Positions 11,121 to 36,605 of a DNA stretch of 64,000 nucleotides are shown here, piece by piece. Origin of the DNA: an uncultured Dehalococcoides sp. (GTDB lineage Bacteria; Chloroflexota; Dehalococcoidia; UBA2979); contig CAZVNJ010000009.1 in assembly GCA_964628985.1 (NCBI GenBank), positions 66-64,065 on the forward strand. Direction: 5' to 3'. Below the pieces are notes generated by a model, which had not been told where the DNA came from, did not search any database, and was given only the letters and a program-made list of their open reading frames with translations. The number at the start of each line of letters is the position of its first letter. Position 1 is the stretch's first letter. Position numbers and translations under genes: made by a program.

Positions 11121-11486
11121 ATGACCTTCTCGGAATCAGTCCGCTCTGGATTCCAGAACTACGCAGTGTTCAAGGGCCGGACGGCTCGCAGGACCTTCTG
11201 GTACTGGGTGCTGTTCACGCTGATCCTCGGGCTCATTGCGAGCATCCTGGACAGCATGATGGGAGACACCCGACTTCTGCAGAGCGTCGTGGACCTGGCC
11301 CTGATCGTGCCGAACCTCGCGATCGGCGTCCGACGCCTGCACGACATCGGGAAGTCCTGGAAATGGATCCTGCTGGCGCTCATCCCCGTGCTCGGGTGGA
11401 TCTACCTCATCTACCTCTACATCCAGCCGAGCGAGGGTCCGAACGAGTACGGCGCAGCGCCGGACACCGCTCCAGCCGCGGCGTAG
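11121..11486 (+). CDS. DUF805 family membrane protein
   Basis: FKGRTARRTFW, VRRLHDIGKS, GPNEYG motifs. Confidence 0.9.
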   Translation: MTFSESVRSGFQNYAVFKGRTARRTFWYWVLFTLILGLIASILDSMMGDTRLLQSVVDLALIVPNLAIGVRRLHDIGKSWKWILLALIPVLGWIYLIYLYIQPSEGPNEYGAAPDTAPAAA

Positions 11487-11693
11487 CCGCCTCGCCCGTG
11501 TCGATGGACAGCAGCCGTCACTCGTGAGTGTGGCGGCCGGTTCGTTGTGCGGCGGACATCTCGTTTCATCGTCGCGGCTGCCGCCGCCCTCGTGCGCCCA
11601 CCCCAGCGGGGTCACTCCACCTTGACAGGCCGCGCGAGGCATCGGACGCTCCGCGCCTCGCGGGGGGCTTCCGCTGAGACAGGGGGATCCGAA

Positions 11694-12755: not shown

Positions 12756-12863
12756 AGGGAGCGCGGATGTCCGCGCGAACCCACCAACATGCGTCCGCAC
12801 CGTCCGAACCCGTCCTGCAGCGGCGGAGATGGATCAATGTGGCGGTCGCCTGGAGGGGTCAAG

Positions 12864-14654: not shown

Positions 14655-14716
14655 CCGACACGATGGGTGAGAGTCATCCGAGGCCAGTCGGCCTAATCCT
14701 CAGTTGCCCACCAGCC

Positions 14717-15766: not shown

Positions 15767-15769
15767 GGG

Positions 15770-16948
15770 CTACGCGCTCGCGTCCTGCGTGCTGCCTCGG
15801 AGGGCCGGAAGCGCCGTGGCGATCGCGAGGAGGATCGCGAGGCCCATGATCGGCGTGCCAACCTGCTTGAGCGGCGCCGACTCCGCGAGCAGGCCGACGA
15901 TGAAGATGGGCAGGCCCACGTTGATCCCGGCGAAGACGAGGTGATCCACGACCGGCGCCACCGGGCGTCGGAAGCGCATGACGAGCGCGAGGATCCCGTT
16001 CGTCATGACGCCGATGAAGATCGAGTGGTCGAGCGCGAGCAGCAGGTGCGTCGGCGGATCGAGCTCTTTCGAGAAGTACTTGCCGATGAGGTAGACAAGG
16101 ATGCCGAGGTTCACGATGAGGAAGACGAGCGCCATGGCGCCGTGGCGGGCTGTGCCGGCAGTCATGAACGACGGCGACATGAGCGGGCCTCGCAGCCGGA
16201 CGATGAGGATCACGAGGCCGATGATCTCGAACGGCAGGCTGAAGGTGACGAGCGGGACGATGTCGGCGAGCAGTCCGATGATGACCAGGATGCCGCCCAG
16301 GAGCGGTAGGCCGATCTGGAACCAGCCTGCGCGCGTGGCTCGTCGGAGCACCGATCCTGGATCGAGGGCCCACTCGATCAGCGCCATGCCGACGGGTACG
16401 AGGAAGCCGACGACCATGGCGGCGGGGTGGGCCTCCGCGGTCGTCTCCGGGATGCCGTCCGAGCCGGCCAGGCGTAGGCCAAGCAGGATGCCGAGGATGG
16501 CGCCGAGGACGGACATCAGGACCGCGGCGAGCATGCCGATGTGCGGGACGCTGAGGGTCCGTCCTCCAGCCTGGCGGACGCACCATCCGAACATCGCGAG
16601 GATGACGAGCCCGACGAGGGTGCCGAGGATGGGGCGCATGACGCCGTAGGTGGTGAGGAAGGCGAGCGCGTAGCCCGCGATGGTGAGCGGGGCGGCGTAG
16701 CCGATGAATCGTGCGAAGCCGGCGTCTGTGCCCGGGGCATCGCCGAGGGCGAACAGCCAGAGGGCGGAGGCGAACACGCCGAGGGTGATCCACCCGAGCG
16801 TGCCGACGTGGACATGGGTGAGGAGGACCTTGCGGTCGAACTCCACTGCATCAATACCGTTGAGGATGCCGATGACGACAGTGACGGTAAAGAGGGCGAG
16901 GGCGGCGGAGAGGAGCAGGCGTACCTGCGCGGCGTGCGGGCTGGCCAT
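15770..16948 (-). CDS. Uncharacterised ~12-TM protein with membrane histidines
   Basis: Highly hydrophobic; HVHVGTLGW, EAHPAAMVVGF and LDHSIFIGVM motifs. Confidence 0.7.
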   Translation of the reverse strand: MASPHAAQVRLLLSAALALFTVTVVIGILNGIDAVEFDRKVLLTHVHVGTLGWITLGVFASALWLFALGDAPGTDAGFARFIGYAAPLTIAGYALAFLTTYGVMRPILGTLVGLVILAMFGWCVRQAGGRTLSVPHIGMLAAVLMSVLGAILGILLGLRLAGSDGIPETTAEAHPAAMVVGFLVPVGMALIEWALDPGSVLRRATRAGWFQIGLPLLGGILVIIGLLADIVPLVTFSLPFEIIGLVILIVRLRGPLMSPSFMTAGTARHGAMALVFLIVNLGILVYLIGKYFSKELDPPTHLLLALDHSIFIGVMTNGILALVMRFRRPVAPVVDHLVFAGINVGLPIFIVGLLAESAPLKQVGTPIMGLAILLAIATALPALRGSTQDASA

Positions 16949-17127: not shown

Positions 17128-18444
17128 GTGGCGACCGAGACGCCAGTGAGCGGGGCGCCTATCGAGAAGGCGACCCCCGGGCGGCGACCCTACTACGGCT
17201 ATTACATCGTTGGCGGGGCGCTGATCGCGCAGCTGATTTCCACCGGGGCGCAAAACTCCGTGGCCGGTGCGTTCATGTCGCCGATGACGCGAGAACTCGA
17301 CTGGACCCGCGCGGAGTTCACCTACGGGCTCACGGTGAGCCGGTTCGTTGCGGCGGGTGCCGGGATCTTCATTGGCGTGTGGGTGGACAAGTACGGCGGC
17401 CGGCGGCTGATGTTCATCGGTGCGCTGCTGCTCTCACTCACCACGTTCCTGACAGGCTATGTGCACGACATCTGGGAATGGGTATTGCTGCGCGGCCTCG
17501 TCCTGACGCTGGGCGCGTCGATGGTGGGGAACCTCGTCGTCAATGTGACGGTGTCCAAGTGGTGGGTGGAGAAACGTGGACGGATGATCGGGTTCTCCGC
17601 GATGGGAGTGTCCCTCGCGGGTGTGGTGTTCCCGCCTCTGTCCGCGTTCCTGATCGAGGAGTTCGGCTGGCGGATGGCCTGGCATCTGCTTGCGATCCTG
17701 TCGATCGCCCTCGTCGTACCCGTGTCGATGATCATGCGACGAGCGCCGGAGGACTACGGCCTCTTCCCGGACGGACGGAACGCAGAGGAGATGAAGGGCC
17801 GCGCCGGTGCGGTGCAGGCGGCCGACTTCGCCAACTCGTTCACGCGCCGCGAGGCGCTGCGCACGCCAGCGCTCTACCTCATCGTGCTGTCGTTCGGACT
17901 CGGCGGTGTGGGGCTGGGGACCATGCTGCTGCAGACGCTGCCGTTCCTCACGGATCAGGATTACTCCGTGGCCCAGGCAGCGTTTTACACGAGCCTGATG
18001 TCGTTTTTCGCGCTGATCTCGAAGGTGGGCTGGGGCTGGATGGCAGATCGGGTGCCGCCAAACCGGCTCGCCGCGTTCTCCTTCGTGCTCTCCGGCTGTG
18101 CCATCACGGGAGTGGTGTACATGGCTGAGGCGCGCGCGCTCATCCCCCTCGGGATCGCGTTCGCCGCAGTCGGCTGGGGATTCGGAGGCCAGATTCCGCT
18201 GCAGGAGACAATCTGGGGTTCCTACTTCGGGCGTCGCTACCTCGGTTCGGTGCGGAGTGTGGCGATGCCGATCTCGCTGCTGATTGGCGCGGGTGCGCCG
18301 CTGTTCGTGTCCTGGTATTACGACACCGTGGGCAACTACCACGGGGTCTTCCTGGGCATCGGCGGGCTCTGGTTCCTCGCGGCGGGTATCGTGCTGCTCG
18401 TGCGACGTCCGACGAAGCCATCTGCCGCGGTGGCGATGGTGTAG
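17128..18444 (+). CDS. MFS transporter (OFA/MCT-like)
   Basis: YYGYYIV, KWWVEKRGR, RRAPEDYGLFPDG. GTG 17128 follows a GAGGAGG SD. Confidence 0.88.
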   Translation: MATETPVSGAPIEKATPGRRPYYGYYIVGGALIAQLISTGAQNSVAGAFMSPMTRELDWTRAEFTYGLTVSRFVAAGAGIFIGVWVDKYGGRRLMFIGALLLSLTTFLTGYVHDIWEWVLLRGLVLTLGASMVGNLVVNVTVSKWWVEKRGRMIGFSAMGVSLAGVVFPPLSAFLIEEFGWRMAWHLLAILSIALVVPVSMIMRRAPEDYGLFPDGRNAEEMKGRAGAVQAADFANSFTRREALRTPALYLIVLSFGLGGVGLGTMLLQTLPFLTDQDYSVAQAAFYTSLMSFFALISKVGWGWMADRVPPNRLAAFSFVLSGCAITGVVYMAEARALIPLGIAFAAVGWGFGGQIPLQETIWGSYFGRRYLGSVRSVAMPISLLIGAGAPLFVSWYYDTVGNYHGVFLGIGGLWFLAAGIVLLVRRPTKPSAAVAMV

Positions 18445-18467
18445 TTGCTAGCAGATCGAGGTGCGAC

Positions 18468-18968
18468 GTGAATGGTGAGTTGATCCTGATCCGTGCGCTG
18501 CACGTGCTGCCTGGTGTGATCTGGGTAGGCGGCGCCTCGCTGATGGCCTGGGTGATCGAGCCGGCACTGCGCCGGGCGGGCCCCACGGTGCAGGGGCCGG
18601 CGATGCGAGCGTTCGGCAAGCGGCTGACGAGCACGCTGCTCACCGCCGCCGGGGTGACGATCATTATGGGTATCGTCTTGGTCGTGAGGACCCCGGGGTA
18701 CGAGTTCGCGGACCTGTTCACGACGGCCTGGGGATGGGCGATCGGCCTCGGCTTCGTCGCATCGATCATCGCAAGCGGCTTCGGCAGCATGTCGGCGCGC
18801 GCGCTCCGCCAGATGGATGCCGTCGGGGCGGCGATCAACGGAGCGCCGACCGCAGACCAGGCGGCGGCGATGGGCGCGTTGCAGGCGCAGTTGCGCCGGA
18901 ACGCCCGCGTGGCATCCGTGCTCGGCCTGACGACCGTGATCCTGATGGTCAGCGCTCGGTATGTGTAG
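18468..18968 (+). CDS. Hypothetical 4-TM membrane protein (CopD/DUF2269-like N-terminus)
   Basis: RALHVLPGVIWVGG first helix and 4 hydrophobic segments. Confidence 0.6.
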   Translation: MNGELILIRALHVLPGVIWVGGASLMAWVIEPALRRAGPTVQGPAMRAFGKRLTSTLLTAAGVTIIMGIVLVVRTPGYEFADLFTTAWGWAIGLGFVASIIASGFGSMSARALRQMDAVGAAINGAPTADQAAAMGALQAQLRRNARVASVLGLTTVILMVSARYV

Positions 18969-18971
18969 CGC

Positions 18972-19937
18972 GTGCTGACCATCCGCGCACGACGGTCGGA
19001 CGGCACGCTGGCCCTCGGACTGTCGTTCGAGGAGGGTGTCGCGCTACTCGGGGACCAGCAGGCGCTCGTCTGGTTCGACCTCGACGAGGAATCCCGGGAC
19101 GAGGTCCACGCCGTGGGCGCGGCGCTCTCGCTGAACCACCTGACCGTCGAGGACTTCACGCACCGCCGCCAGCGCGGCAAGTTCGAGCAGTTCGAGGGCT
19201 ACTCGGTCCTGGTGATGCACGCGTTTGCCTACGAGAGTGGCGTCCCTCGCCTAGACGAGCATGAGCTCGACGTGGCCGTCGGCCGGAACTGGGTGCTGAC
19301 GGGCCGGGATCCCCGGTTGGCCGCACTCGTGCCAGGAGCCTCGCTTGACGCGCACCTGCCCTCGATGCTCGGGGCGACCGCTGACTTCCTGCTATACGCC
19401 ATCGCGGACCGCGTGGTGGACTCGATGTTCCCGGTACTCGACGAGATGCTCGATGACGTGGACACGCTTGAGGGACTGATCGTGGGCGGCGATGGGCCCA
19501 CGCTCCTGGAGCGGATCTTCACCATGAAGCGGAACGGGGTTGTGCTCCGCAAACTGGTTGCTCCCCACCTTGAGATCTTTTCCAGGCTGGCGTCCCCCGC
19601 CTTTGGCGTGGCGAGGCCTGAGCACGTGATCTACTTCCGCGACGTGCAGGACCACCTGATCCGTGTCCACGACATCGTGGACTCCTATCGCGAATTGATG
19701 GCTGCGGCACTCGAGGTGCACCTGTCGACGGTGAACAATCGGCTGAACGACGTGATGAAGCGGCTCACCGTGCTGACGGCGATGTTCCTGCCTCTGACCT
19801 TCATCACGGGCGCCTTTGGGATGAACATGGTCGAGTCGCCTGTATGGTCGGACCCGGCGTTCTGGATCATCGGCGCTGGGATGGGGGGCGTTGCCCTGGG
19901 GCAGTGGCTCTTCTTCAAGGCGCGCGGCTGGGCGTAG
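18972..19937 (+). CDS. corA: CorA family Mg2+/Co2+ transporter
   Basis: FLPLTFITGAFGMN signature with two C-terminal TMs. Confidence 0.9.
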   Translation: MLTIRARRSDGTLALGLSFEEGVALLGDQQALVWFDLDEESRDEVHAVGAALSLNHLTVEDFTHRRQRGKFEQFEGYSVLVMHAFAYESGVPRLDEHELDVAVGRNWVLTGRDPRLAALVPGASLDAHLPSMLGATADFLLYAIADRVVDSMFPVLDEMLDDVDTLEGLIVGGDGPTLLERIFTMKRNGVVLRKLVAPHLEIFSRLASPAFGVARPEHVIYFRDVQDHLIRVHDIVDSYRELMAAALEVHLSTVNNRLNDVMKRLTVLTAMFLPLTFITGAFGMNMVESPVWSDPAFWIIGAGMGGVALGQWLFFKARGWA

Positions 19938-19971
19938 GCCGCGCCGCCTCGACGGATGGGGGCGAGGGCGG

Positions 19972-20673
19972 CTACTTGATGCGCTCCGCGCGGACGATCA
20001 GCCGGCTGGCGTACTTGTGGGTTTCTGGGTCGAACTTCCCGCTGCAGGTGAAGAGAGTGATCGAGTCCACCTTCACGTTGCTGCTCCAGTACTGACTCCA
20101 GTCAGTGCCCTCAGCCGGTACCTGCTCAGCCCAGACGACTGAGTACTTCAGCGTCTGCCCGTTGATCTCGATGTCGATGCGGTCCCCGGCGCCCAGTTGG
20201 TCGAGGTCCCAGAAGACAGCTGGGCCGGTGTAGCGTTGGCCGACAGACTCGATCACTCGGTTGAGGTCTGCATGGGCGCCAAAGACGGCGTTTTTCCCGC
20301 TCCCGGGGTAGCCGCCGTGGCCGGGGAAGGCGGAGAGGTCGTACCAGGCGACGTCGACGGCGCTATATGGCTCGGGCATCGCATCTCCCGCGACCGCCCA
20401 GGCGCCCACCGGCGCATTGACGCCGATCGCGGGGATCTTGAGCCGCGCGAAGTCAGTGCCCTTCGGTTCTCCATACTTCTTCGTCCACGTGGTGACGGAG
20501 TCCTGCACCCGAGCCGGGTCGTTCCCGGCCGACGGTACGCCCGCGGCGGAACCCTTCGATGTAACGGAGATGCCGTCCCCACCCAGTTGGCCGGTGGCGA
20601 CGAGGACGGCGCTCAGCAGCGCGACGCCGCCGATGACAGCGAGGATGAGCATCTGGGCCTGGCGGGTCATCAC
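19972..20673 (-). CDS. Sortase (class F-like)
   Basis: N-terminal anchor, VAWYD, NAVFGAH, ITLFTC and RLIVRA give the His/Cys/Arg triad. Confidence 0.82.
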   Translation of the reverse strand: MMTRQAQMLILAVIGGVALLSAVLVATGQLGGDGISVTSKGSAAGVPSAGNDPARVQDSVTTWTKKYGEPKGTDFARLKIPAIGVNAPVGAWAVAGDAMPEPYSAVDVAWYDLSAFPGHGGYPGSGKNAVFGAHADLNRVIESVGQRYTGPAVFWDLDQLGAGDRIDIEINGQTLKYSVVWAEQVPAEGTDWSQYWSSNVKVDSITLFTCSGKFDPETHKYASRLIVRAERIK

Positions 20674-20838
20674 GTCTCCAACAACAGGTGATGGGCATCA
20701 GCGGATGAGCGTTTCCACTCCCATATTAGGCACGCGCACTCGCGATGGCGACAGTGCCCGCCTGGGCTGGAGTGTTCTGTGTGACGCCTCCCGACACCGT
20801 CAGGTTCCCGGCCCACCCTGGACCCGGCGTGCGAGGCC

Positions 20839-20865
20839 TACCGAGTCGCGAGGGCAGGCCGATGA
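20839..20865 (+). promoter_or_regulatory. Putative sigma28-type promoter
   Basis: TACC-N15-GCCGATGA. The -10 is identical to that of fliC1, and both promoters share GAGGCCTA across the -35. Confidence 0.6.
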
Positions 20866-20872
20866 TCACGGC

Positions 20873-21031
20873 ATGACGGATGTGCTCGTGGCCCTCGGCG
20901 CGTCGCTGATCCTCGCCTTCGTGTTGTCGGGGCCGAGAGGACGTGCGCACAGAGCCGAGGCCGCGGCCGCGCAGACGAAGGCGCCCAAAGCGGCCAGGGC
21001 CAAGGCCGCCAAGACCAGTCGCTCGGAGTAG
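20873..21031 (+). CDS. 52-aa single-TM protein with Lys/Ala-rich basic tail
   Basis: MTDVLVALGASLILAFVLSGPRGRAHRAEAAAAQTKAPKAARAKAAKTSRSE; ATG lies 7 nt after the -10 element (leaderless-type spacing). Confidence 0.6.
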   Translation: MTDVLVALGASLILAFVLSGPRGRAHRAEAAAAQTKAPKAARAKAAKTSRSE

Positions 21032-21033
21032 GG

Positions 21034-21912
21034 CTAACCCCGCGGCATCCGCATTCCGATCCAGGTGAGGGTGTCCATCAGCCGATCCGGGAGCAGGCGC
21101 ACCGCGAGCGCGCGCATGCGCGCGTCCCGGCCCACGAAGTAGCGCGTCTTCGGCCGCCGGGCACGCACGGCATGGGCGACCGCCTCGGCCACACGTTCAG
21201 GCGCGATGCCGCCTCGTCCCGCGCGCTCACCGGAGCGCCGAGCCGCCTCGACGTACGGGGCGTAGCGCGCCCGGGCGTCCGGGGGCATCTCCGCAGCGAC
21301 CTCGCCAGCGAGTGCGAGGCCCTTCTCCCAGATCGGCGTGTCGATCGCGCCGGGCTCGACCAGGCTCACGCTGATGTCCCACGGCTTCATCTCCAGCCGG
21401 AGCGAGTCCCCGAGCGCCTCGAGGGCGTGTTTCGAGGCGGCGTAGGGGCCGTAGAACGGCGGGGCATGCTTACCGGCGATCGAGGACATGATCACGATTC
21501 GCCCATGGCCGCGACGCACGAGCGGCATGAATGCCTGAGTGACTGCCACTGTGCCGAAGAGGTTCACCTCGAACTGCTGGAGCAGACGCTCGCGGCCGAG
21601 GTACTCCCATGCGCCGCCGACGGCGATCCCCGCGTTGTTCACCACGGCACCCAGGCCACCCGCCCCGGTGGCGGTGCCCACCTGCTGCACGGCAGCCACA
21701 ATCGAGGCGGCGTCGGTGACATCGAGCAGCACCGGGACGATCAGGGCGCCCCCGCGGCGCCGCAGCGTCTCGCCGTCCTCGACGCGTCGCACCCCGGCGA
21801 AAACCCGATGTCCAAGCGCGGCGAGGTGCAGCGCGGTGGCGGCACCGATGCCGGTAGAGGCGCCCGTGATCAGGACTGCGCCGGTATTTGCCGGACGGGT
21901 CGCGCGGGCCAA
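21034..21912 (-). CDS. Short-chain dehydrogenase/reductase
   Basis: ITGASTGIG, VNNAG, SS...YAASK motifs. TTG start inferred. Confidence 0.9.
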   Translation of the reverse strand: MARATRPANTGAVLITGASTGIGAATALHLAALGHRVFAGVRRVEDGETLRRRGGALIVPVLLDVTDAASIVAAVQQVGTATGAGGLGAVVNNAGIAVGGAWEYLGRERLLQQFEVNLFGTVAVTQAFMPLVRRGHGRIVIMSSIAGKHAPPFYGPYAASKHALEALGDSLRLEMKPWDISVSLVEPGAIDTPIWEKGLALAGEVAAEMPPDARARYAPYVEAARRSGERAGRGGIAPERVAEAVAHAVRARRPKTRYFVGRDARMRALAVRLLPDRLMDTLTWIGMRMPRG

Positions 21913-22366: not shown

Positions 22367-23353
22367 CTAGACGCCGACGAGGTGCAAGTGGCCGCGTCGC
22401 GGCGCTGTGCGTTGCCCTCCCCCGACCACGGCGTTGAGGACGGGTGGGGCGGTGACGCCCTCAAGGGCTGCCTCGAACGACCGCAGGAGGTCCGCTTCCG
22501 CGAAGAGATCCGCCGGCTCGATGCCGCCTCCGGCGATGGTGTCCAGCGCCTCGGAGACCGCGAGCGCCGTCGAGTCCGCCGGGACGAGCGGCACCGTCAC
22601 GATGCTGCCGCCTGTGCGCGTCGCCAGGGTGCCCCCGTAGGCGTCCCCGGTACCGGTAATCGTCGTGGTGAAGGAGGAAAGGACCACCTCGATGGCCAGG
22701 TGTTGAGACTGGCGCGCCGTGAGCAAGGCGGTTGTGCCGTCGTTGAATTCGACCTCCGTGACGATGGCCTGTGCTCGGCCGCGCGGCGGGCCATAGGCGT
22801 GCGCGACAACGCTCCGTGCGTGGGTGCCAGCGAGATGCGCCGCCAGCGTGGTCAGATCCCCGGCTGTGAGGCGCAGGTCCTCGGGTGTGTCGACCGTGAT
22901 CGAGGCGGTCCGCAGACGGGCAAGACTCCGGGCGGCCTGCATGGCCGCGGTGATCGGTGCCTGGTGCCAGAGCGGTCGAAGGACGGCGGCGGAGCCTCCG
23001 GTGCGCGCAAGCATCGCCAGCGTGTCAGGTTCCAGGGCGTCGCCTGTCAGCAAGACAGCGCTGCCGCGGCTGGCGGCGGCTGCGGCCTCCGTGGCGGCGT
23101 CGAAGAGGTCGAGCAGGACGGTCGAGCCCGGCCCTCGGCGGAGCATCTCGCGCGGGTGCTGGTAGCGCGCCGTGCAGGTGAGGCGGCCTCTGAGGGCGAT
23201 TGACGCGGCGGCGAGGGAAGCAGCCGACGGGTCACCGATGGCGACCGGGACGAACCGCTGCGCCTCGAGCGCGCGCAGGAGGGCAGGAGTGCGCTCGGTC
23301 CATCCGCAGATGGCGAGCGTGTCCAGCGTGGATGCGCCGAATGGAGCCTGCAT
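22367..23353 (-). CDS. Hypothetical protein with degenerate Gfo/Idh/MocA-like architecture, divergent from fliC1
   Basis: Rossmann-like N-terminus (LAICG...VAIGD) and beta-rich C-terminus, but no EKP motif. Start ATG 23353. Confidence 0.5.
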   Translation of the reverse strand: MQAPFGASTLDTLAICGWTERTPALLRALEAQRFVPVAIGDPSAASLAAASIALRGRLTCTARYQHPREMLRRGPGSTVLLDLFDAATEAAAAASRGSAVLLTGDALEPDTLAMLARTGGSAAVLRPLWHQAPITAAMQAARSLARLRTASITVDTPEDLRLTAGDLTTLAAHLAGTHARSVVAHAYGPPRGRAQAIVTEVEFNDGTTALLTARQSQHLAIEVVLSSFTTTITGTGDAYGGTLATRTGGSIVTVPLVPADSTALAVSEALDTIAGGGIEPADLFAEADLLRSFEAALEGVTAPPVLNAVVGGGQRTAPRRGHLHLVGV

Positions 23354-23514
23354 GGGGGGACGGTAGGAGCGAGCAACCGTGGCGCTGCATGGGGGAGACC
23401 CTGAGAGGTGAGGGTTGCGGAACCTGATCTCCCGCGCCGGTGCTCCTGTCGCCGGATCGCAGCGTGCGCACCGGTTCGAGGGTCGAGGTCCGGCAACACG
23501 TTTTCCCGGAGGCC

Positions 23515-23541
23515 TAAAGGCGGGTGGGTGGCTGCCGATGA
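23515..23541 (+). promoter_or_regulatory. Sigma28 (FliA/SigD) promoter of fliC1
   Basis: TAAA-N15-GCCGATGA matches the TAAA-N15-GCCGATAA consensus with one mismatch. Confidence 0.85.
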
Positions 23542-23590
23542 TGGCGGGTGAGGAGTGGTGGTGTCCGGAACCGCCGCGAGTCGAACCCAT

Positions 23591-23629
23591 CCGGCAGGGA
23601 CGCCGGGGACAACTCTGAGGCTTAGGAGG
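23591..23629 (+). promoter_or_regulatory. Putative CsrA-binding hairpin plus SD in fliC1 leader
   Basis: ccggc-AGGGAC-gccgg stem-loop, then ttAGGAGG SD. Confidence 0.55.
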
Positions 23630-23636
23630 CCGAACG

Positions 23637-24833
23637 ATGGCAATGATCATCAACACGAACATCGCTGCCCTGAACGCGCAGCGGAACCTGGGCACCACCA
23701 GCGCCCAGATGGGGAAGACCCTCGAGAAGCTGTCCAGCGGTCTGCGCATCAACCGCGCCGCGGACGACGCTGCCGGGCTGGTCATCTCCGAGAAGATGCG
23801 TGCCCAGATTCGAGGCATGCAGCAGGGTCTGCGGAACGCCCAGAACGGCGTCTCGATGCTGCAGACCGGTGAAGGCGCGCTGAACGAGGTGCACAGCATC
23901 CTCGGCCGCGTGCGCGAACTCGCTGTCCAGGCCAGCAACACCACCCTCTCCGCTTCGGACCGCGAGGCCATCGGTGAGGAAATGCTGGCCCTGCGCTCTG
24001 AGATCGACAACATCGCCACCCGTACCCGCTTCAACGGCCAGAGCCTCCTGAACGGATCGCTCGCGGTGACGCTGGACGCGGCGAACTCGACCGCGGACAC
24101 GGTGACGTACGCCAACGGTGGCGCGACGACCTCGGTCTCCTCGATCAACGTGGCGGACGCCACGGCTGGCGAGACCTACACGTTCTCGGCAGCCGGTGCG
24201 GTCCTGACCCTCACGCACGACGACGGCAACGGCTTCGTGCGGACGGAGACGGCCACGGTCCAGGCGATGGGCGCCAGCGGTTCGCAGGCGGTCATCTTCG
24301 AGGAACTCGGCGTCACCCTGAACCTGTCGCACGACGCGAACGCCGCCAACCACACGGGTGCGAACATCGCCAACGCCTTCGCCGCCACCACCGTGGTGAC
24401 CACGGGCAGCGGCAACGCCTCCTTCCGCGTGGGTGCGGATGTCGGTGACGACATCTCGCTGGCGTTCTCGGACATGCGCTCCAGCGCGCTGGGCAACGGT
24501 TCCAAGCTGAACACCCTGATCGCCGCGAACGACGCCGTGTCGACGGTGGCGAAGGCGGACACCCTGCTCGCGTCGGTGGACGCGGCGATCGACCAGGTGT
24601 CGACCTTCCGAGCGAAGATTGGTGCCCGGCAGAACCAGCTCGATGTGGCGACGAACTCCCTCGGCGTCTCGATCGAGAACCTGTCGGCGTCGGAGTCGCG
24701 CATCCGCGACGCGGACATCGCTGAACTGTCCAGCCAGATGATCACCAAGCAGATCATCCAGCAGGCCGGTGTGGCGGTCCTCGCGCAGGCCAACGCGGCC
24801 CCGCAGGCGGTGCTCTCGCTCCTCCGCGGGTAG
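23637..24833 (+). CDS. fliC: Flagellin (copy 1)
   Basis: INTNIAALNAQRNL, LSSGLRINRAADDAAGL, ENLSASESRIRDAD, VLAQAN. Confidence 0.97.
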   Translation: MAMIINTNIAALNAQRNLGTTSAQMGKTLEKLSSGLRINRAADDAAGLVISEKMRAQIRGMQQGLRNAQNGVSMLQTGEGALNEVHSILGRVRELAVQASNTTLSASDREAIGEEMLALRSEIDNIATRTRFNGQSLLNGSLAVTLDAANSTADTVTYANGGATTSVSSINVADATAGETYTFSAAGAVLTLTHDDGNGFVRTETATVQAMGASGSQAVIFEELGVTLNLSHDANAANHTGANIANAFAATTVVTTGSGNASFRVGADVGDDISLAFSDMRSSALGNGSKLNTLIAANDAVSTVAKADTLLASVDAAIDQVSTFRAKIGARQNQLDVATNSLGVSIENLSASESRIRDADIAELSSQMITKQIIQQAGVAVLAQANAAPQAVLSLLRG

Positions 24834-24856
24834 CCCGTCCTCGGACGCAGCATCGG

Positions 24857-24890
24857 GAGGCCCCTGCCGTGAGGTGGGGGCCTCTTCGTT
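24857..24890 (+). terminator. Intrinsic terminator after fliC1
   Basis: gaggcccctgcc-GTGA-ggtgggggcctc followed by ttcgtt. Confidence 0.7.
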
Positions 24891-24913
24891 GCACTCTGTT
24901 CGCGAGGAGGGGG

Positions 24914-24952
24914 CGGGATTCTCCCGATGGGCGGCCCGCGCTGGCGCCGACA
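24914..24952 (+). promoter_or_regulatory. Conserved upstream motif plus sigma28-like -10 (methyltransferase promoter)
   Basis: GGGATTCTCCCGA-N18-GCCGACAG. Confidence 0.6.
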
Positions 24953-24994
24953 GACTGGCCGGGCAGGGCCCACACGGCCGGGTAGGAGCCATCG

Positions 24995-26296
24995 ATGGTC
25001 GCCGTCGAGCCGACGCGCACGCAGGCCGTGCGCGAGTCCGTCCACCAGCAGTACGAGTCGCTGCCATATCCGGCCCGCGACCCGGAAATGGAACTCGATC
25101 GGCTGCTCCAGCCAACGATGTGCGAACTACCGCGGGTGAACGCGATGCTCTGGGGCGGCCGGCGTGTCTACGACTCGACCTTCCGCATCCTGGACGCCGG
25201 CTGCGGCACGGGCGATGCCACGGTCTTCATGGCAGAGCAACTCCGAGATACCGGTGCCCGGCTGGTGGCGCTCGACCTGTCCTCGGCCTCGCTGAGCATC
25301 ACGCGGCGACGCCTGGAGAAGCGCGGGCTCGAGGGCGTCGTGGACCTCGTGCAGGCGCCGATCGAAGAGGCGCCGGGGCTGGGTCTCGGGCAGTTTGACT
25401 TCATCTCGACGTCCGGCGTGCTGCACCATCTGCCTTCGCCGGAGATCGGGCTGCGGGCGTTGCGTGAGCTGCTGAAGCCGGACGGTGCGATCGCGGTCAT
25501 GGTGTACGCGAAGTACGGTCGTGAGCCGGTGTACCTCATGCAGTCGCTGCTGCGGATGGTGGCGCCCGCCGAGTTTGGCGAGGAGCGCCGCCTCCGCATC
25601 CTGAAGCGGTCGCTCCAGGCATTGCCGTCTGAGCACCGGGGCGTCCGTGGGTTGTTGGACACCCCACTCTTCAACGCCGAGATCGCCCGGTCGGACGCCG
25701 GGGCCTACGACCTGCTGCTGCACTCGCAGGATCGGCCATACACGGTGCCCGAGATCTATGACTGGTTGAGCGGCGCAGGCATGCGGTTGCTCGATTGGGG
25801 CGTGCCGAAGGCGTACCGCCCGTTGACGTACTGGCCGGGCGCGGATCTCTCGCATCTCCCGGCAGAGGATCACGCGGTTGCGGCGGAACTGATGCACGGC
25901 CGGATGACGAAGCACCACTTCTTCGCCGTGCCAGCCGAGGCCTCGCCCCCCACCCAGCCAGCTGCCGACGATCCTTCCACGGTACCGACGTGGACGGCCT
26001 GGCAGTTCGACGTCCCCCTGGGACAGGCGCTCGCGCGGCCGGGGACACAGTTGAAGTTCGGAATGGGCGAGGACCGTCAGATCGTCGTGAATGGGGATCC
26101 GCTCAATCGCCGTCTCCTGGGCGCGATCGACGGGCACCGCGACGTGGGCACGATCCTGGAGGAGGCCTGGCGGGCCTTCCCCGCCCAGACGCCAGAGCAG
26201 ATCCGGCGTCGCTGGGTGGAGTTGTGCGAGGGGATGCGGGAGATCGCGGCCCTCGTGCTGTTCCGTCCCGCCGCCTCGTCCGGCCGGCCAGGCTAG
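24995..26296 (+). CDS. Class I SAM-dependent methyltransferase with C-terminal extension
   Basis: ILDAGCGTG motif I, SGVLHHLPSP, QYESLPYPARDP N-terminus, DLLLHSQD. Confidence 0.85.
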   Translation: MVAVEPTRTQAVRESVHQQYESLPYPARDPEMELDRLLQPTMCELPRVNAMLWGGRRVYDSTFRILDAGCGTGDATVFMAEQLRDTGARLVALDLSSASLSITRRRLEKRGLEGVVDLVQAPIEEAPGLGLGQFDFISTSGVLHHLPSPEIGLRALRELLKPDGAIAVMVYAKYGREPVYLMQSLLRMVAPAEFGEERRLRILKRSLQALPSEHRGVRGLLDTPLFNAEIARSDAGAYDLLLHSQDRPYTVPEIYDWLSGAGMRLLDWGVPKAYRPLTYWPGADLSHLPAEDHAVAAELMHGRMTKHHFFAVPAEASPPTQPAADDPSTVPTWTAWQFDVPLGQALARPGTQLKFGMGEDRQIVVNGDPLNRRLLGAIDGHRDVGTILEEAWRAFPAQTPEQIRRRWVELCEGMREIAALVLFRPAASSGRPG

Positions 26297-26339
26297 AGGC
26301 CGACCTTCAGGAACCGTCGCCGCCGTCGAGTATGGCGGT

Positions 26340-26576
26340 ATGACGCTCTCGATGCCCTGCGACGCCTGTAGCACGCCGCTGCGCCGTGACGTGGTGACGG
26401 TCAAGTTCACCACGAGCAGCGTGTCGTTCGGGACGGGCGGGCACACGCGACTCACACCCAACAGCCGTCAGGAGTATGTGGTCTGCCAGCGCTGCGCCTC
26501 CTATCTACAAGCGTGCATCGCGATGCTCGAGGGGCGCGTGAGCGCAGAGCCGCACAGTGTGAGGGAGATGGTCTGA
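26340..26576 (+). CDS. 78-aa putative zinc-ribbon protein A
   Basis: CDAC-x38-CQRC followed by an amphipathic helix. Confidence 0.65.
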   Translation: MTLSMPCDACSTPLRRDVVTVKFTTSSVSFGTGGHTRLTPNSRQEYVVCQRCASYLQACIAMLEGRVSAEPHSVREMV

Positions 26577-26821
26577 TGAGCCCATCCTTCTCCGCGTGCG
26601 ACCTCTGCCTGAGCAGCCTGGAGGGCCAGGTGACGGAGGTCCAGATCGCCCCGGCCCGGATGGTGCAACTGACCGAGGAGGGCAGCATTGCCCATCACTC
26701 GACGGGCCTGCGCAGTCTGAGGCTCTGCCTCCCGTGCGGCGACTACCTGGTGGCGGGGTTCGAGCGGCTGCTGAACGCGTACGGCCGTGGGCTCCCGGAG
26801 CCGGAGCGCCTCGCGGGTTAG
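26576..26821 (+). CDS. 81-aa putative zinc-ribbon protein B (probable paralog of A)
   Basis: CDLC-x39-CLPC followed by a helix; TGATG stop/start overlap with protein A. Confidence 0.65.
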   Translation: MSPSFSACDLCLSSLEGQVTEVQIAPARMVQLTEEGSIAHHSTGLRSLRLCLPCGDYLVAGFERLLNAYGRGLPEPERLAG

Positions 26822-26858
26822 GCGGGTTAGGGAGCCGCGGGCGCTCGCCGTCTGGTGA

Positions 26859-27536
26859 CTACTTGAAGCGCTCAAGCCAGCGGTTGGCGCGCTCGATCGA
26901 CTTCGGTTCGTCCTTGTAGATCGAGTGCCCGATCCCGGGGTAGATCTCCAGTTCCGCGTTCGGGATGCAGCGGTACATGATGACGGAGCCGCCCGCGGGA
27001 GTCTGCGTGTCCGCGTCGCCGACGAGGATGAGCGCAGGCACGGTGACCTTCTTCAGCCCCTCGTCCATGCGGTAGCGGGCCACCGCGCGGTTCGTCTCGG
27101 CCATCGGCAGGTTGCCGGCTGCCTCAAACTCTTCGGCGCGCTTGAGCCACCCAGCCGCCAGCGGACCGCCGACGCGGCTGGACGTGGCGAAGAGGATGAT
27201 GCCCTCGACGCGGTGGGGGAAGTCGATCGCGAAGCGCTGGGTGATTGCCCCGCCCATCGAGTGGCCGGCGACGATCGCCTTCTCGATGCCCAGTGCCTCC
27301 ATCAGCGCGTCCAGGTCCCGGGCCCAGGTTTCGAGGCTGACCGGCCCCGGTTCGCTGCCGCTCTCCCCCATGCCTCGCACGTCGTATGTGAGGTGGCGGA
27401 ACCCGGGGAACTGGGGCGTGGTCGTCTCCCAGGTCTCGAGGCGGGAGCCGATTCCGTGGACGAAGACGATCGTGCGGCTGCCCTCGCCGCTCAGCCGGTA
27501 GTGCTGCTTGATCCCATTGGCGGTGACGAACGGCAT
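26859..27536 (-). CDS. Alpha/beta hydrolase
   Basis: FVHG, YDVRGMG, GHSMGG nucleophile elbow, GHSI. Confidence 0.9.
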   Translation of the reverse strand: MPFVTANGIKQHYRLSGEGSRTIVFVHGIGSRLETWETTTPQFPGFRHLTYDVRGMGESGSEPGPVSLETWARDLDALMEALGIEKAIVAGHSMGGAITQRFAIDFPHRVEGIILFATSSRVGGPLAAGWLKRAEEFEAAGNLPMAETNRAVARYRMDEGLKKVTVPALILVGDADTQTPAGGSVIMYRCIPNAELEIYPGIGHSIYKDEPKSIERANRWLERFK

Positions 27537-27655
27537 CGGCTGTCTCCTCAGCGGCGACGCGCGGCGGCGGCCGCGGCTGGCGGAGTATACGCATGGCCCG
27601 GGGAGGCTGGCTGAATCTGCCGTGCTACATTTCCCGTCGGTCAGGGAGGCGCCCC

Positions 27656-28150
27656 GTGGCGGAGATCGACTCTCGCGAGTTCCGGAACTGGGGTGGTCGC
27701 TTTGCCACCGGCGTCACGGTCCTGACGGTGCAGGTGGGCGACCAGTTGCGGGGCATGACCGCCAACGCCTTCTGCTCCCTCTCCCTCCACCCCCCGTTGA
27801 TCCTCGTCTGCATCCAGCACGGCGTGTCGATGCACCCGTTTTTTGAAGTGGCGGAGTCGTTCGGCGTGAACATCCTGGCCTCCGACCAGCGCGCGGTCTC
27901 CGAGCTCTTCGCGCAGCACGGCGAGCACGCCGCGCCGATGGGCGGCCAGGCCTATCGCATCGGCACCCTTGGTGCACCACTACTGGAGGGTGTGCTGGGC
28001 TGGGCGGAGTGCCGCGTCGAGGACCGTTACGCTGGGGGCGACCACATGATCGTCATCGGCCGCGTGGACTCGATGGCGGTGGAGCGGCCCGAGGCTGGCC
28101 CATTGCTCTTCTACTCAGGCAAGTACCGGGCGCTGGGCGACCTCGTCTAA
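27656..28150 (+). CDS. Flavin reductase family protein
   Basis: FATGVTVLT, GMTANAF.SLSL.PP, GGDH.IVIG, PLLFY.G.Y. Confidence 0.9.
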   Translation: MAEIDSREFRNWGGRFATGVTVLTVQVGDQLRGMTANAFCSLSLHPPLILVCIQHGVSMHPFFEVAESFGVNILASDQRAVSELFAQHGEHAAPMGGQAYRIGTLGAPLLEGVLGWAECRVEDRYAGGDHMIVIGRVDSMAVERPEAGPLLFYSGKYRALGDLV

Positions 28151-28233: not shown

Positions 28234-28271
28234 CCTGACTCCGCGACGTGTGCACGTCGCGAGGAGAGCGC

Positions 28272-29348
28272 GTGGACGCACTGTCCCCCACCGGCCCCGG
28301 CGGAGCGGCGTCCCACGAGGTCGCCCGTACGGCCTCGCCACCGGCGCAGGCCGCCTCGTTCGCGGCAGTCCTCGAACGGCGGATCGCTTCGGCGCGGTCG
28401 GAGATCAACGGCGTGCGCGCGGAGATCGCTTCCCTGCGAGAGGGAGGGGCGCGGGCGCTCGCCGCGGGGGCCGCTGGCCGCGCCGCCACGGACCGCACAC
28501 GCCCGATGTCGATCGCGGACGTGGCCGCCCGCCTGAAGTCCATGTCGACGGGTGACACGGCTGATCCATATGGCTGGCGGCAGATGGCGCGCAGCACCGG
28601 CGAGTCCGTGATTGGCGCGGGATATGGAGCCATCTTCGAGCGGCAGATCCAGCAGGAGTCCGGCTTTGCCCCAGACGTCGTCTTCGGACTGCGCAAGTCC
28701 TCGGCGGGCGCGGAGGGGATCGCGCAGTTGATGCCCCAGTACTACCCGAACGTGGCCCGGTCTGATCCGCAGGCCGCCTTGCTGGCCGGGGCGCGCAGCA
28801 TGGAGCACTACCTCAGTGCATGGGACGGCGACGTCCGGAAGGCGCTAGCTTCCTACAACGCAGGGCTGGGCAAGGTTCGGCAACTCGTCGGCGCGCACGG
28901 CGACCGCTGGGAGAGCGCGCTGCCGATGGAGACACGGCAGTACCTGGCGGCCATCCTCGGCGACATGCGCCCGATGTACACGAAGCCCTCCAGCACCGTC
29001 GCCGTGTTTGGCGGGCGCGGCCCGGGCGGCGTCCTGACGATGCCGGTCGACCGCACCGGCAGCCGTCCGTCTGGGGATTCGCTGGACCTCTTCGCGCGTG
29101 CCGGCAGCCCTGTCCGAGCACCGGCGGATGGCACGGTGCGCGGTTCGTCTGGGAACGGCACCGTCACGATCGACCACGGCAACGGATGGCAGAGCACACT
29201 CGGCGGTATCGAGGGCAGGCTGCCGTCTGACGGCGCCTCGGTCAGGCGCGGCGATGTCCTTGGTGCTGTCGGAGAGGACGCAAGAGTCGTGCTTGGCCTC
29301 ACGCTCAACAGCCGGCCGGTGGAACCGCAGCGCTATCTGATCGGTTAG
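28272..29348 (+). CDS. Lytic transglycosylase (SLT) fused to degenerate M23 domain
   Basis: IQQESGF (catalytic Glu), GIAQLMP, ASYNAG, ETRQY; then GSPVRAPADGTV, IDHGNGW, VRRGDVLG. Confidence 0.82.
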   Translation: MDALSPTGPGGAASHEVARTASPPAQAASFAAVLERRIASARSEINGVRAEIASLREGGARALAAGAAGRAATDRTRPMSIADVAARLKSMSTGDTADPYGWRQMARSTGESVIGAGYGAIFERQIQQESGFAPDVVFGLRKSSAGAEGIAQLMPQYYPNVARSDPQAALLAGARSMEHYLSAWDGDVRKALASYNAGLGKVRQLVGAHGDRWESALPMETRQYLAAILGDMRPMYTKPSSTVAVFGGRGPGGVLTMPVDRTGSRPSGDSLDLFARAGSPVRAPADGTVRGSSGNGTVTIDHGNGWQSTLGGIEGRLPSDGASVRRGDVLGAVGEDARVVLGLTLNSRPVEPQRYLIG

Positions 29349-29420: not shown

Positions 29421-29497
29421 GGTGGGTGTGGCCTAGCGGTTAGGGCGTCAGGTTGTGGCCCTGAAGATCGGGGGTTCAAATCCCCTCACCCACCCCA
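29421..29497 (+). tRNA. tRNA-His (GTG)
   Basis: Cloverleaf with GTGGGTG/CACCCAC acceptor stem, encoded G-1 and C73, TCAGG-TTGTGGC-CCTGA anticodon arm, GGTTCAAATCC T-arm and encoded CCA. Confidence 0.96.
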
Positions 29498-32102: not shown

Positions 32103-32143
32103 GGGTTTCCCCCGAGACGGACGCCGGCCCGCAACGCCGATGA
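32103..32143 (+). promoter_or_regulatory. Conserved upstream motif plus sigma28-like -10 (flaG-fliD promoter)
   Basis: GGGTTTCCCCCGA-N20-GCCGATGA. Confidence 0.62.
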
Positions 32144-32202
32144 TCCGGACAGGGATGCCCGTGCCCGCGGCGTGACGGCACGCCTCGACGGGGCCCGCAA
32201 GG

Positions 32203-32547
32203 ATGGCCGCGATGGCCGACATCAAGATCGAACGAGGGCCCGCATCCATCGGCCCGGCCGCGGTCACGCCGGACCAGCGGCGCGGGAGCGGTGGGGGCGG
32301 ACGGCGGGACTCGGGCGATTCCGGTGCCCAGCCGCCGGGAGTCGAGGAACTCGCGCTGGCGCTGCGCGAGGAGGGGCGGAAGCACCTCGTCGCGCGGCTG
32401 GTGACGGATGAGTCGGGAGAGACGCGCGTGCGGATCGTGGACACGGACCGGGACGAGACCGTGGCGGTGCTCACACCGGACGAACTGCGGATCCTGGCTG
32501 CCCAGACGGGGCTCCCGTCTGGCCTGCTGCTGCAGGCTCGGTCGTAG
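32203..32547 (+). CDS. flaG: FlaG-like protein
   Basis: C-terminal VRIVDTDRDETVAVLTPDELRILA...G.L; lies between flagellin and fliD. Confidence 0.7.
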   Translation: MAAMADIKIERGPASIGPAAVTPDQRRGSGGGGRRDSGDSGAQPPGVEELALALREEGRKHLVARLVTDESGETRVRIVDTDRDETVAVLTPDELRILAAQTGLPSGLLLQARS

Positions 32548-35909: not shown

Positions 35910-36605
35910 ATGGCTCAGTCCACCCCCGTTACCCGTCGGCACCGTCGAGGCACGCGCTGGGCCGCCGGAAGCGCGGTCCTGGTGCTCGCCTCCGTCACTG
36001 GCTTCGTGATGGCCGGCACGGGCATGGAGGCCGGGCCCATCTCCTCGGCCCAGCGCCAGGCTGCTGAGGGGGCGGCCGCCCGGATCGTCGCCGGCGGTGG
36101 CACCCGACCACAGGCCCAGGGCTGGCGGCCGGCATCTGTCGCCGAGTCCAACCCGATCGAGTTCGCAAAGGGCGGGAAGGTCCTGACCACCGCCTTCGCC
36201 AACCGTGTCGTCATCCGATCGGTCGGCATCGACGTGCAGGTGCAGCCCGTCGGCCTCGTCTTCACGCAGGGCAAACTGCAGTACGACGTCCCCTATGTGG
36301 AGGCCGGCCAGTACGTGGGCACCGCCCAGCCGGGCCGGCCGGGGAACGCCGTCATCGGCGGGCACGTGTCGAGGCGCGGCGCACCGGGTGTATTCGCGGC
36401 CCTGCCGAAAGTCGTCGCCGGGGATGTGGTGGAGGTCTTCAGGGGCGAACAAGTCTTCCGATACTCCGTAACAGAGATTCGCGTCGTCGCATCGGATGCG
36501 ACGAGCGTGATGAGTCAAACGCAGGATGCGACCTTGACGCTCATCACCTGCTTCCCAGACGACGGCCTGCGTGAGCGGCTCGTCGTGGTCGGGAAGTTGA
36601 TGTAG
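35910..36605 (+). CDS. Sortase within the flagellar operon
   Basis: N-terminal TM, PGRPGNAVIGGH, TLTLITC, RLVVVG. Confidence 0.85.
   Translation: MAQSTPVTRRHRRGTRWAAGSAVLVLASVTGFVMAGTGMEAGPISSAQRQAAEGAAARIVAGGGTRPQAQGWRPASVAESNPIEFAKGGKVLTTAFANRVVIRSVGIDVQVQPVGLVFTQGKLQYDVPYVEAGQYVGTAQPGRPGNAVIGGHVSRRGAPGVFAALPKVVAGDVVEVFRGEQVFRYSVTEIRVVASDATSVMSQTQDATLTLITCFPDDGLRERLVVVGKLM

Follow-up and report, generated by a model that had tools for sequence, protein, structure and literature searches.

The enzymes of the Rv2067c/PKMT family are a small set of bacterial protein-lysine methyltransferases, and their known substrates (OmpB, AtaA and histone H3) are secreted or surface proteins. Rv2067c from Mycobacterium tuberculosis (PDB 8HKR) is a class I enzyme reported to trimethylate free histone H3 at K79, and it has three domains, namely a catalytic one, a helical one for dimerisation that is split into two insertions and, at the C terminus, an alpha+beta one of ~100 residues, which together form a trough that accepts extended substrates and that the authors noted to resemble the cleft of PKMT1/2 (PMC10739865). 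PKMT1 and PKMT2 from Rickettsia (PDB 5DNK, 5DOO), together with KmtA from Acinetobacter, act on the surface proteins OmpB and AtaA, in which they methylate many lysines (PMC11784438; PMC10739865). The flagellin lysine N-methylase FliB of Salmonella also methylates many surface lysines and is a [4Fe-4S] enzyme that lacks the class I fold (PMC8598068, PMC7181671). Here we analyze a window of 64,000 nucleotides (nt) from an uncultured Dehalococcoides sp. (contig CAZVNJ010000009.1), in which a methyltransferase gene stands beside the flagellin gene fliC1 and is followed by two small genes, termed here zr1 and zr2, whose products each contain four conserved cysteines (Cys4).

We propose that this stretch contains two independent units, the enzyme and the zr pair, each plausibly tied to the flagellum, a reading to which we give about an even chance. 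The first-pass annotation of the stretch had described a three-gene cassette between the two flagellin genes, and its anatomy and coordinates were borne out, including the open reading frames (ORFs), the 43-nt gap, the coupled Cys4 genes, the convergent hydrolase gene and the hairpin after fliC1. The elements of the two units are as follows (loci compared with the window carry numbers such as L001).

24914..24956, + strand: conserved bipartite element 5' of the methyltransferase gene, window copy GGGATTCTCCCGATG-N22-AGACT, recognized by conservation
24995-26296, + strand: methyltransferase ORF, 433 amino acids (aa), with AGGAG 6 nt 5' of the ATG
26305..26333, + strand: possible decayed sigma-28-like zr1 promoter, CTTCAGG-N13-GTCGAGTAT, ending 6 nt before the ATG, recognized by comparison with relatives
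26340-26576, + strand: zr1, 78-aa Cys4 (CDxC...CxxC) microprotein, 43 nt after the methyltransferase gene
26576-26821, + strand: zr2, 81-aa Cys4 microprotein (Cys 9, 12, 52, 55)

The methyltransferase and its relatives

All 433 residues of the enzyme are conserved across more than 1700 homologues, and the ratio of nonsynonymous to synonymous substitution rates (dN/dS) of its gene is 0.18. Pfam recognizes a generic class I domain only (Methyltransf_12/25/11/31 at residues 63-170). A profile built from 16 homologues (alignment A1, 425 positions) and run against the PDB with hmmsearch matched 8HKR, the structure of Rv2067c, whose PDB deposition names it a protein lysine methyltransferase, with an E value of 1.4e-52 over positions 10-387 of 425 at ~25% identity, followed by generic methyltransferase domains and by the Rickettsia PKMT2 and PKMT1 via their catalytic domain. 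The AlphaFold2 (AF2) monomer model, with a predicted local distance difference test score (pLDDT) of 89, also has 8HKR as its best PDB match in Foldseek, with template modelling (TM) scores of 0.71/0.79 over 413 aligned columns; all PKMT1/2 chains come next (TM ~0.6, E 1e-14 to 1e-17), and after these come ordinary small-molecule methyltransferases with TM scores below 0.4. The model is divided into three domains.

~aa 1-175 plus strands 263-268 and 306-313: catalytic 7-beta-strand domain
~aa 177-241 and 271-300: helical dimerisation inserts
~aa 330-425: C-terminal alpha+beta domain, similar to a winged helix or to a RiPP (peptide that is ribosomally synthesized and then modified post-translationally) recognition element (RRE)

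The C-terminal domain of the model contains strands followed by three helices, and it has a weak, sub-threshold match to the Pfam winged-helix family PKMT_2nd (E 0.22) and no Pfam match to PqqD. The S-adenosylmethionine (SAM) binding motif DAGCGTGD aligns to AGCGTNQ of 8HKR, with the GxGxG motif conserved. In Rv2067c an N-terminal tyrosine, Y20, faces SAM (PMC10739865), and the QY..(L/P)YP motif of the window enzyme contains two tyrosines, Y20 and Y25, that are invariant in A1 and correspond in the alignment to Y18 and Y23 of chain 8hkr_A, the numbering of which may differ from the native one. Hence the Rv2067c/PKMT family gains a new member, which is very probably a protein methyltransferase of the PKMT type. 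It had been annotated as a plain Rossmann class I enzyme, a description that has to give way to the three-domain Rv2067c/PKMT type, while the statement that it does not resemble FliB holds, as only class I methyltransferase families were matched in Pfam and NCBIfam and no FliB domain or similarity was found.

The window enzyme and Rv2067c therefore share full-length homology, the same three domains, the N-terminal tyrosines and GxGxG. They differ in that the window enzyme is from a Chloroflexota metagenome-assembled genome (MAG) of groundwater and sand-filter origin, is known here from its sequence, and has a flagellar rather than a host-directed context. PKMT1 and PKMT2 belong to the same fold family, to which the weak PKMT_2nd match also points, and here too the candidate substrate would be a surface filament or adhesin that is secreted, although the PKMTs are only ~12-15% identical and ~100 aa longer, and their substrates are Lys-rich and multiply methylated while the flagellins of these loci contain 6-10 Lys. 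Like FliB, the window enzyme is encoded next to fliC and it would be a functional analogue if flagellin is its substrate; unlike FliB, it is a class I enzyme with no sequence or domain similarity, and its neighbouring flagellins do not offer many surface lysines.

The zr1 and zr2 protein family

The cysteines of zr1 are at positions 7, 10, 49 and 52, with an additional one at 59. The ATG of zr2 overlaps the TGA of zr1 by one base (cTGATGa) and a Shine-Dalgarno sequence, GAGGGAG, is located at 26561-26567, an arrangement by which zr2 is predicted to be translationally coupled to zr1. The G+C content at third codon positions (GC3) is 0.86 for zr1 and 0.91 for zr2, compared with 0.53-0.77 for the other frames, and dN/dS is 0.22-0.30 and 0.11-0.33, respectively. 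Both are genuine coding genes under purifying selection. In an alignment of the two proteins the four Cys and one Asp are invariant (CDxC ... CxxC-x-YL), and hhalign of the two subfamilies gives a probability of 96.6% (E 6.7e-10); by their sequences zr1 and zr2 are paralogues.

A search of 5.8 billion sequences gave 65 zr relatives, all in Chloroflexota-type MAGs, and an exhaustive HMMER search of 1.8 billion representatives gave 62 zr clusters. The CDxC and CxxC motifs are invariant or nearly so in 61 zr sequences, no member of the family has a Pfam domain, and the zr proteins are not similar to any Pfam, NCBIfam or PDB entry. The only match in Pfam/NCBIfam, DVU_1557, has an E value of 0.077 and covers the first CxxC knuckle only, and was dismissed as a relative. 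The AF2 model of zr2 built from the 61 sequences (pLDDT 80) contains four strands and a C-terminal helix, and Foldseek found no significant match for it in the PDB, its matches to eS21 and Lsr2 being noise. No match was found between the family and known zinc-ribbon families or structures, while CxxC knuckles and a beta sheet/helix model are present. The zr pair is a small family not previously described, and the first-pass view of the two small proteins as a coupled pair of an undescribed family stands.

In two independent sequences, L001 and P0122, zr1 and zr2 are fused in frame, which is Rosetta-stone evidence for a zr1-zr2 heterodimer; we consider it probable that the pair forms one. Since Lys is absent from zr2 and the one Lys in zr1 is not conserved, the two proteins are essentially Lys-free and are unlikely to be substrates for lysine methylation, and the notion that they are lysine substrates of the methyltransferase was rejected.

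In sister lineages the same variable slot contains another small gene, which encodes a TFIIB-type zinc-ribbon protein of ~150 aa with two repeats (70-82% identical; L084 9344-9802 (-), L085 10375-10836 (-), L092 1263-1709 (-) and L029 10662-11120 (-)). It is unrelated to zr1/zr2, with an hhalign probability of 5.5% against the zr family.

The zr genes are paired in four of the five contexts inspected, while single-protein scans of metagenome contigs for further zr contexts gave no match. The spacing of the pair is as follows.

Window (78, 81 aa): 1-nt overlap
L087 (93, 75 aa): 4-nt overlap
L092 (81, 73 aa): 2-nt gap
L093 (71, 79 aa): 4-nt overlap

The pair follows the methyltransferase gene only in the window and in L001-L004, representing five of ~20 flagellin-linked loci. 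It is absent from L005-L016, L059 and L084, where the slot is taken by MgtE or a hydrolase or is empty. Elsewhere the pair stands apart from the methyltransferase. In L087 and L092 opposite-strand genes lie directly 5' of the pair (the TFIIB-type zinc-ribbon gene, plus MgtE in L092), and in L093 the pair is directly behind fliM and a CheY-like receiver gene. Hence the "three-gene cassette" of the first-pass annotation is a local juxtaposition in one sub-clade.

The zr pair of the relatives carries an element known from flagellin promoters. The promoter of fliC1 was used as the reference for the "shared motif" of the first-pass annotation and as the positive control of the matrix scans, in which it scores 29.2 bits against a shuffle maximum of 21.3. 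Before the zr1 start, GCCGATGAT is found in the divergent loci L003, L004, L087 and L093, and GTCGATGAT in L092. The former is identical to the -10 block of the clade flagellins and scores 16.5 bits, and blocks this high are expected at ~8e-5 per position. There is no conserved -35 before zr1 in the relatives and no Shine-Dalgarno before zr1, and the box ends 6-7 nt before the ATG. As this is the right position for transcription to start at the ATG itself, the box suggests a leaderless, sigma-28-class transcript of the pair in these relatives. The pair thus resembles the late genes of sigma-28 (FliA/SigD) in its flagellin-type -10 block, and its products of ~80 aa are similar in size to small late-class regulators such as FlgM. 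Unlike FlgM, which contains no Cys and is disordered, the zr proteins are Cys4 proteins that are predicted to be folded and are paired; the zr genes also differ in having no conserved -35 and a putative leaderless start.

Flagellar links and alternative explanations

In every Chloroflexota locus with an orthologue at least 47% identical to the window enzyme, and where the contig reaches that far, a flagellin gene is located directly 5' of the methyltransferase gene. The flagellin-linked Chloroflexota loci are L001-L010, L012, L014-L016, L059 and L084, with L028 and L034 on short contigs, and most of them retain the block fliC, methyltransferase, flavin reductase, SLT/M23, PDZ gene, fliC (L059 lacks the PDZ gene and fliC2). 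Taken alone, this adjacency is shared ancestry. The Planctomycete loci are independent cases of flagellin linkage. In L030/L081 the homologue is convergent with the gene for a 1671-aa flagellin, beyond which are csrA, fliW and a second giant flagellin; in L040 it follows flgB-flgC-fliE-fliF-fliG-fliI-fliK and precedes a tetratricopeptide repeat (TPR) gene on the minus strand, a flagellin gene and fliS; and in L076 the order is methyltransferase, TPR-sulfotransferase, flagellin. Overall, the Planctomycete homologue is within ~3 kb of a flagellin gene in three of ~8 loci, where a rough estimate of chance is ~1% per locus. Other homologues stand among genes for protein modification (TPR proteins, sulfotransferases and 2-oxoglutarate (2OG)-Fe(II) oxygenases).

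Some neighbours of these homologues are recorded in their own right. The giant flagellins of L081, a Pirellulaceae MAG, comprise 1671 aa (11478-16493, -) and more than 1126 aa (18334-21293, -), with csrA and fliW between them. Large TPR proteins are encoded beside Planctomycete methyltransferase homologues and flagellins in L076 (7145-10096, +), L091 (50-2429) and L040 (9385-11325, -), one of them fused to a sulfotransferase, which recalls TPR-guided flagellin-modifying enzymes. In the Rhodocyclaceae locus L083 (1-9888) the nuo (complex I) operon and DUF2818 stand immediately before the homologue and a NUDIX gene after it, a conserved-looking arrangement that is quite unlike the others.

A number of observations weigh against a flagellar role. 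Most of the 80 loci examined contain no flagellar gene, most homologues are not beside flagellar genes, and proteobacterial and other homologues are found in unrelated contexts (nuo operon; purL-bolA). In L035, L036 and L085, whose orthologues are 42-44% identical, the methyltransferase is kept at the syntenic site and in the order of the window (methyltransferase, flavin reductase, PDZ gene, orf183, FAA hydrolase, cysteinyl-tRNA synthetase), and exactly fliC1, the SLT/M23 gene and the 18-kb flagellar cluster are missing from the locus. None of the 120 best relatives of the L029 flagellin was traced to these three loci, which is an indirect check and weak evidence. The three are sister to the flagellin-linked L029 in a neighbour-joining tree, and the simplest reading of these sequences is that the flagellar genes were lost while the methyltransferase stayed in place. 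The methyltransferase is not a dedicated flagellar gene; it is part of a chromosomal backbone that persists without flagellar genes. The flagellins are in addition poor in lysine (6-10 Lys in ~400 residues), and one distant zr homologue is solo with no flagellar genes nearby.

The upstream sequences in the window belong on the same side of the balance. The first-pass annotation had placed a promoter of the shared motif/-10 type before the methyltransferase gene, and the box, CCCGATG at 24923-24929, is indeed present and conserved, but this 7-mer is no commoner in the window than chance would have it (18 copies against 20 expected), and it scores just 1.9 bits (-10 block) against the clade flagellin-promoter matrix. 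A sigma-28/SigD promoter was taken to comprise a TAAA -35 and a GCCGATAA-like -10, ~15 nt apart; before the methyltransferase gene the CCGATG core shared with the flagellin -10 block is all that was found, with no -35. The bipartite element that contains the box is taken as real because it is conserved upstream of the orthologues, its clade form, GGGnnTTCCCCGATG-N22-ACACT, preceding the gene in nearly all Chloroflexota loci. It occurs once per flagellin-linked locus, each time before the methyltransferase gene, and the composite motif was not found before other flagellar genes of those loci. It also precedes orthologues that have no flagellin within 8 kb (L017, L019, L021, L023 and L024), it is absent in L035, L036 and L085, and no Rfam family matches it. 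In view of its gene-specific occurrence and its presence before orthologues with no flagellin within 8 kb, the idea of the box as a flagellar promoter was rejected. Judged by its conservation the element is a putative gene-specific promoter or 5' regulatory element, and it is no proof of membership in the flagellar regulon. For zr1, the box in the window is degenerate (2.3 bits for the -10 block), and here the matrix gives no promoter support.

These points lend weight to the explanation that neither unit is flagellar, the methyltransferase being a housekeeping protein-lysine (or other) enzyme of the backbone with which flagellar genes became interleaved in one lineage, and the zr pair a lineage-specific insertion in a variable spot. 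The syntenic loci without flagellar genes, the low proportion of loci with any flagellar gene, the Lys-poor flagellins and the solo zr homologue all fit, as does the slot between the methyltransferase and flavin reductase genes, which can be occupied by the zr pair, the hydrolase, MgtE, APH or the TFIIB-type zinc-ribbon gene. We nevertheless consider this explanation rather unlikely, because three Planctomycete loci, of which one is within a core flagellar operon, independently place the homologue beside flagellin, and because of the flagellin-type -10 box before zr1 in relatives and the fliM-cheY context of the pair in L093. The first-pass annotation had itself named homologues unlinked to flagellar loci as an argument against its proposal, and such homologues do exist, in that L035, L036 and L085 keep the orthologue without the flagellar cluster, yet the linkage recurs in Planctomycetes.

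That proposal was of an undescribed filament-modification or regulatory module, in its strict form a co-transcribed set of three genes in which zr1/zr2 are obligatory specificity or regulatory partners of the methyltransferase. The flagellar setting of the proposal stands; that of one conserved module does not. In the window the genes are on the same strand with a 43-nt gap, folding of this gap and of the region 3' of zr2 revealed no terminator, and L001-L004 share the arrangement. The zr1 box is also degenerate in L001 and partly so in L002 (12.1 bits), so that the three loci in which it is weakened (the window, L001 and L002) are exactly those where only a short gap separates the methyltransferase gene from the pair. 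This fits read-through, and in the window transcription of the pair may continue from the methyltransferase gene. We regard obligatory partnership as quite improbable, however, as the pair is missing from most flagellin-linked methyltransferase loci, has opposite-strand genes directly 5' of it in L087 and L092, is found behind fliM-cheY in L093, and accompanies only one small clade among the more than 1700 methyltransferase homologues. A further explanation is a RiPP-like system, in which the RRE-like C-terminal domain would recognize the zr proteins and the enzyme would methylate them on a residue other than lysine. It draws on the listing of 8HKR among reference RRE structures (PMC12710340), on the strands-then-three-helices layout of the C-terminal domain of the model, and on weak similarity of the methyltransferase domain to the daptide (2.8e-4) and cypemycin (5e-6) methyltransferases. 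The zr proteins, however, are predicted to be folded Cys4 proteins conserved over their whole core rather than leader-core peptides, neither of them has a conserved lysine, there is no protease, transporter or tailoring gene nearby (the neighbours being the hydrolase, flavin reductase and SLT/M23 genes), and the methyltransferase family is mostly without such neighbours. Such a system is therefore very improbable.

We thus favour two independent units with flagellar ties. By analogy with its solved relatives, the enzyme would work as a dimer in which the catalytic, dimerisation and C-terminal domains form a trough, and this trough would take an extended, unfolded stretch of protein in which a lysine is methylated with SAM. 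The leading candidate substrate would be unassembled flagellin, or else some other axial protein that is exported, with a small number of conserved lysines as the sites, because in the flagellated relatives the gene is found after fliC1 in every case and in three Planctomycete loci a homologue lies within ~3 kb of a flagellin gene. FliC1 and FliC2 have 7 Lys each, and between residues 54 and 289 FliC1 has none and FliC2 one. With flagellins this Lys-poor and a variable domain almost Lys-free, FliB-like mass methylation of surface lysines is unlikely, and the candidate sites are reduced to a small number of conserved lysines of D0/D1. That the enzyme acts on flagellin or a flagellar protein is accordingly a tentative proposal, and flagellin a candidate that we would not yet call probable. 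The zr1 and zr2 proteins would most likely form a zinc-stabilised heterodimer encoded by a self-contained two-gene unit, most likely a late-class flagellar accessory or regulator pair, and would not be substrates of the methyltransferase. Whether the pair is flagellum-related at all we judge to be evenly balanced.

To our knowledge, the bacterial protein-lysine methyltransferases with a known substrate are a handful (acting on OmpB, AtaA, histone H3 and, for FliB, flagellin), and we know of no late-class flagellar regulator in Chloroflexota. An enzyme of the Rv2067c type beside flagellin in two phyla therefore points to possible native substrates of a family known so far mostly through a pathogen effector and, if flagellin is indeed methylated, would represent an additional route to flagellin methylation, unrelated to that of FliB. 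The zr family has several features that clearly point to a function, namely purifying selection, coupled genes, gene fusions and a conserved flagellin-type -10 box at a putative leaderless start, and it bears on flagellar gene control in Chloroflexota. In its boldest form, the proposal would be that zr1/zr2 are a new class of sigma-28-controlled zinc-ribbon heterodimers, expressed from leaderless mRNA, that regulate late flagellar expression or flagellin handling in Chloroflexota, and that the adjacent enzyme is the first class I (PKMT/Rv2067c-type) flagellin methyltransferase, modifying the unfolded subunit at a small number of conserved lysines, both in Chloroflexota and in Planctomycetes and also on giant flagellins. 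As one joint claim this is a long shot. The locus would be ordinary if neither flagellar link holds.

The surrounding flagellar locus

The window has a G+C content of 68%, its nearest relatives are MAGs of the Dehalococcoidia class, and its sequence was met again in metagenomes from a sand filter, groundwater and a bioreactor. The flagellar locus spans ~23.5-48.5 kb. The gene order on the plus strand is fliC1, methyltransferase, zr1 and zr2, followed by the alpha/beta hydrolase on the minus strand, and then flavin reductase, SLT+M23 peptidoglycan hydrolase, tRNA, PDZ lipoprotein, fliC2, a 114-aa ORF, fliD, fliS, fliT, sortase, fliF, fliG, fliH, fliI, fliJ, flgB, flgC, fliE, a long ORF, flgD, flgE and a DUF2225/cyclic nucleotide monophosphate (cNMP)-binding protein. 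The genes 5' of fliC1 are non-flagellar (short-chain dehydrogenase/reductase, SnoaL-like protein, sortase, CorA and major facilitator superfamily transporters). The features that flank the two units are as follows.

23514..23543, + strand: fliC1 promoter, canonical sigma-28/SigD type, CTAAAGG-N13-GCCGATGATG, from the matrix scan
23637-24833, + strand: fliC1 flagellin, 398 aa, 7 Lys (Pfam Flagellin_N 4e-45, Flagellin_C 3e-23)
24850..24892, + strand: terminator-like hairpin 3' of fliC1, then UCUUCGUU, from folding against shuffles
26859-27536, - strand (convergent): alpha/beta-hydrolase gene, 37 nt beyond zr2

The fliC1 promoter has the core TAAA-N15-GCCGAT, and an element of this type is found ~100 nt 5' of fliC1-type genes in 10 loci. 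The hairpin after fliC1 (-39 kcal/mol, z -4.3) was equalled in none of 200 shuffles and is kept as a structure, with altered stems, in seven loci. A simple promoter and terminator scan of 23300-27800 gave no call; it missed the hairpin because the U-run is weak. An Rfam scan of the region and of the whole window revealed no RNA family near the cassette, its sole match being a tRNA gene (29422-29494, +; 67 bits), which has the SLT/M23 gene before it and the PDZ gene after it within the inter-flagellin block.

The SLT/M23 gene (28248-29348, +), situated between the flagellin genes, is a fusion that encodes an SLT lytic transglycosylase together with an M23 peptidase. Unlike its neighbours it is gone together with the flagellar genes in L035, L036 and L085, and hence it behaves as a flagellum-specific (FlgJ/SltF-like) wall hydrolase. 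The window contains two sortase genes (35910-36605, +, and 19972-20673, -), the former directly 3' of fliT in the flagellar operon, as it is in L059, and an odd partner for flagellar genes. An exact flagellin-type -10 block (GCCGATGATC) is present at 32136-32145 (+), ~60 nt 5' of the 114-aa ORF (32203-32547) that precedes fliD. This ORF has no Pfam match, is kept beside fliD in many loci and may be a FlaG-like late gene. The 8-mer GCCGATGA occurs 22 times in the window, mainly within coding regions, against five copies expected from shuffles; the excess is probably a codon or dipeptide effect, and the 8-mer alone is thus unusable for promoter calls. Between the SnoaL gene and the fliC1 promoter there is a probable unannotated gene of ~328 aa (22367-23353, -; GC3 0.84), which is masked by a longer spurious ORF that overlaps fliC1. 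The flagellar cluster closes with a cyclic-nucleotide-binding domain fused to DUF2225 (47401-48537, +), which may be a cNMP-responsive regulator of motility.

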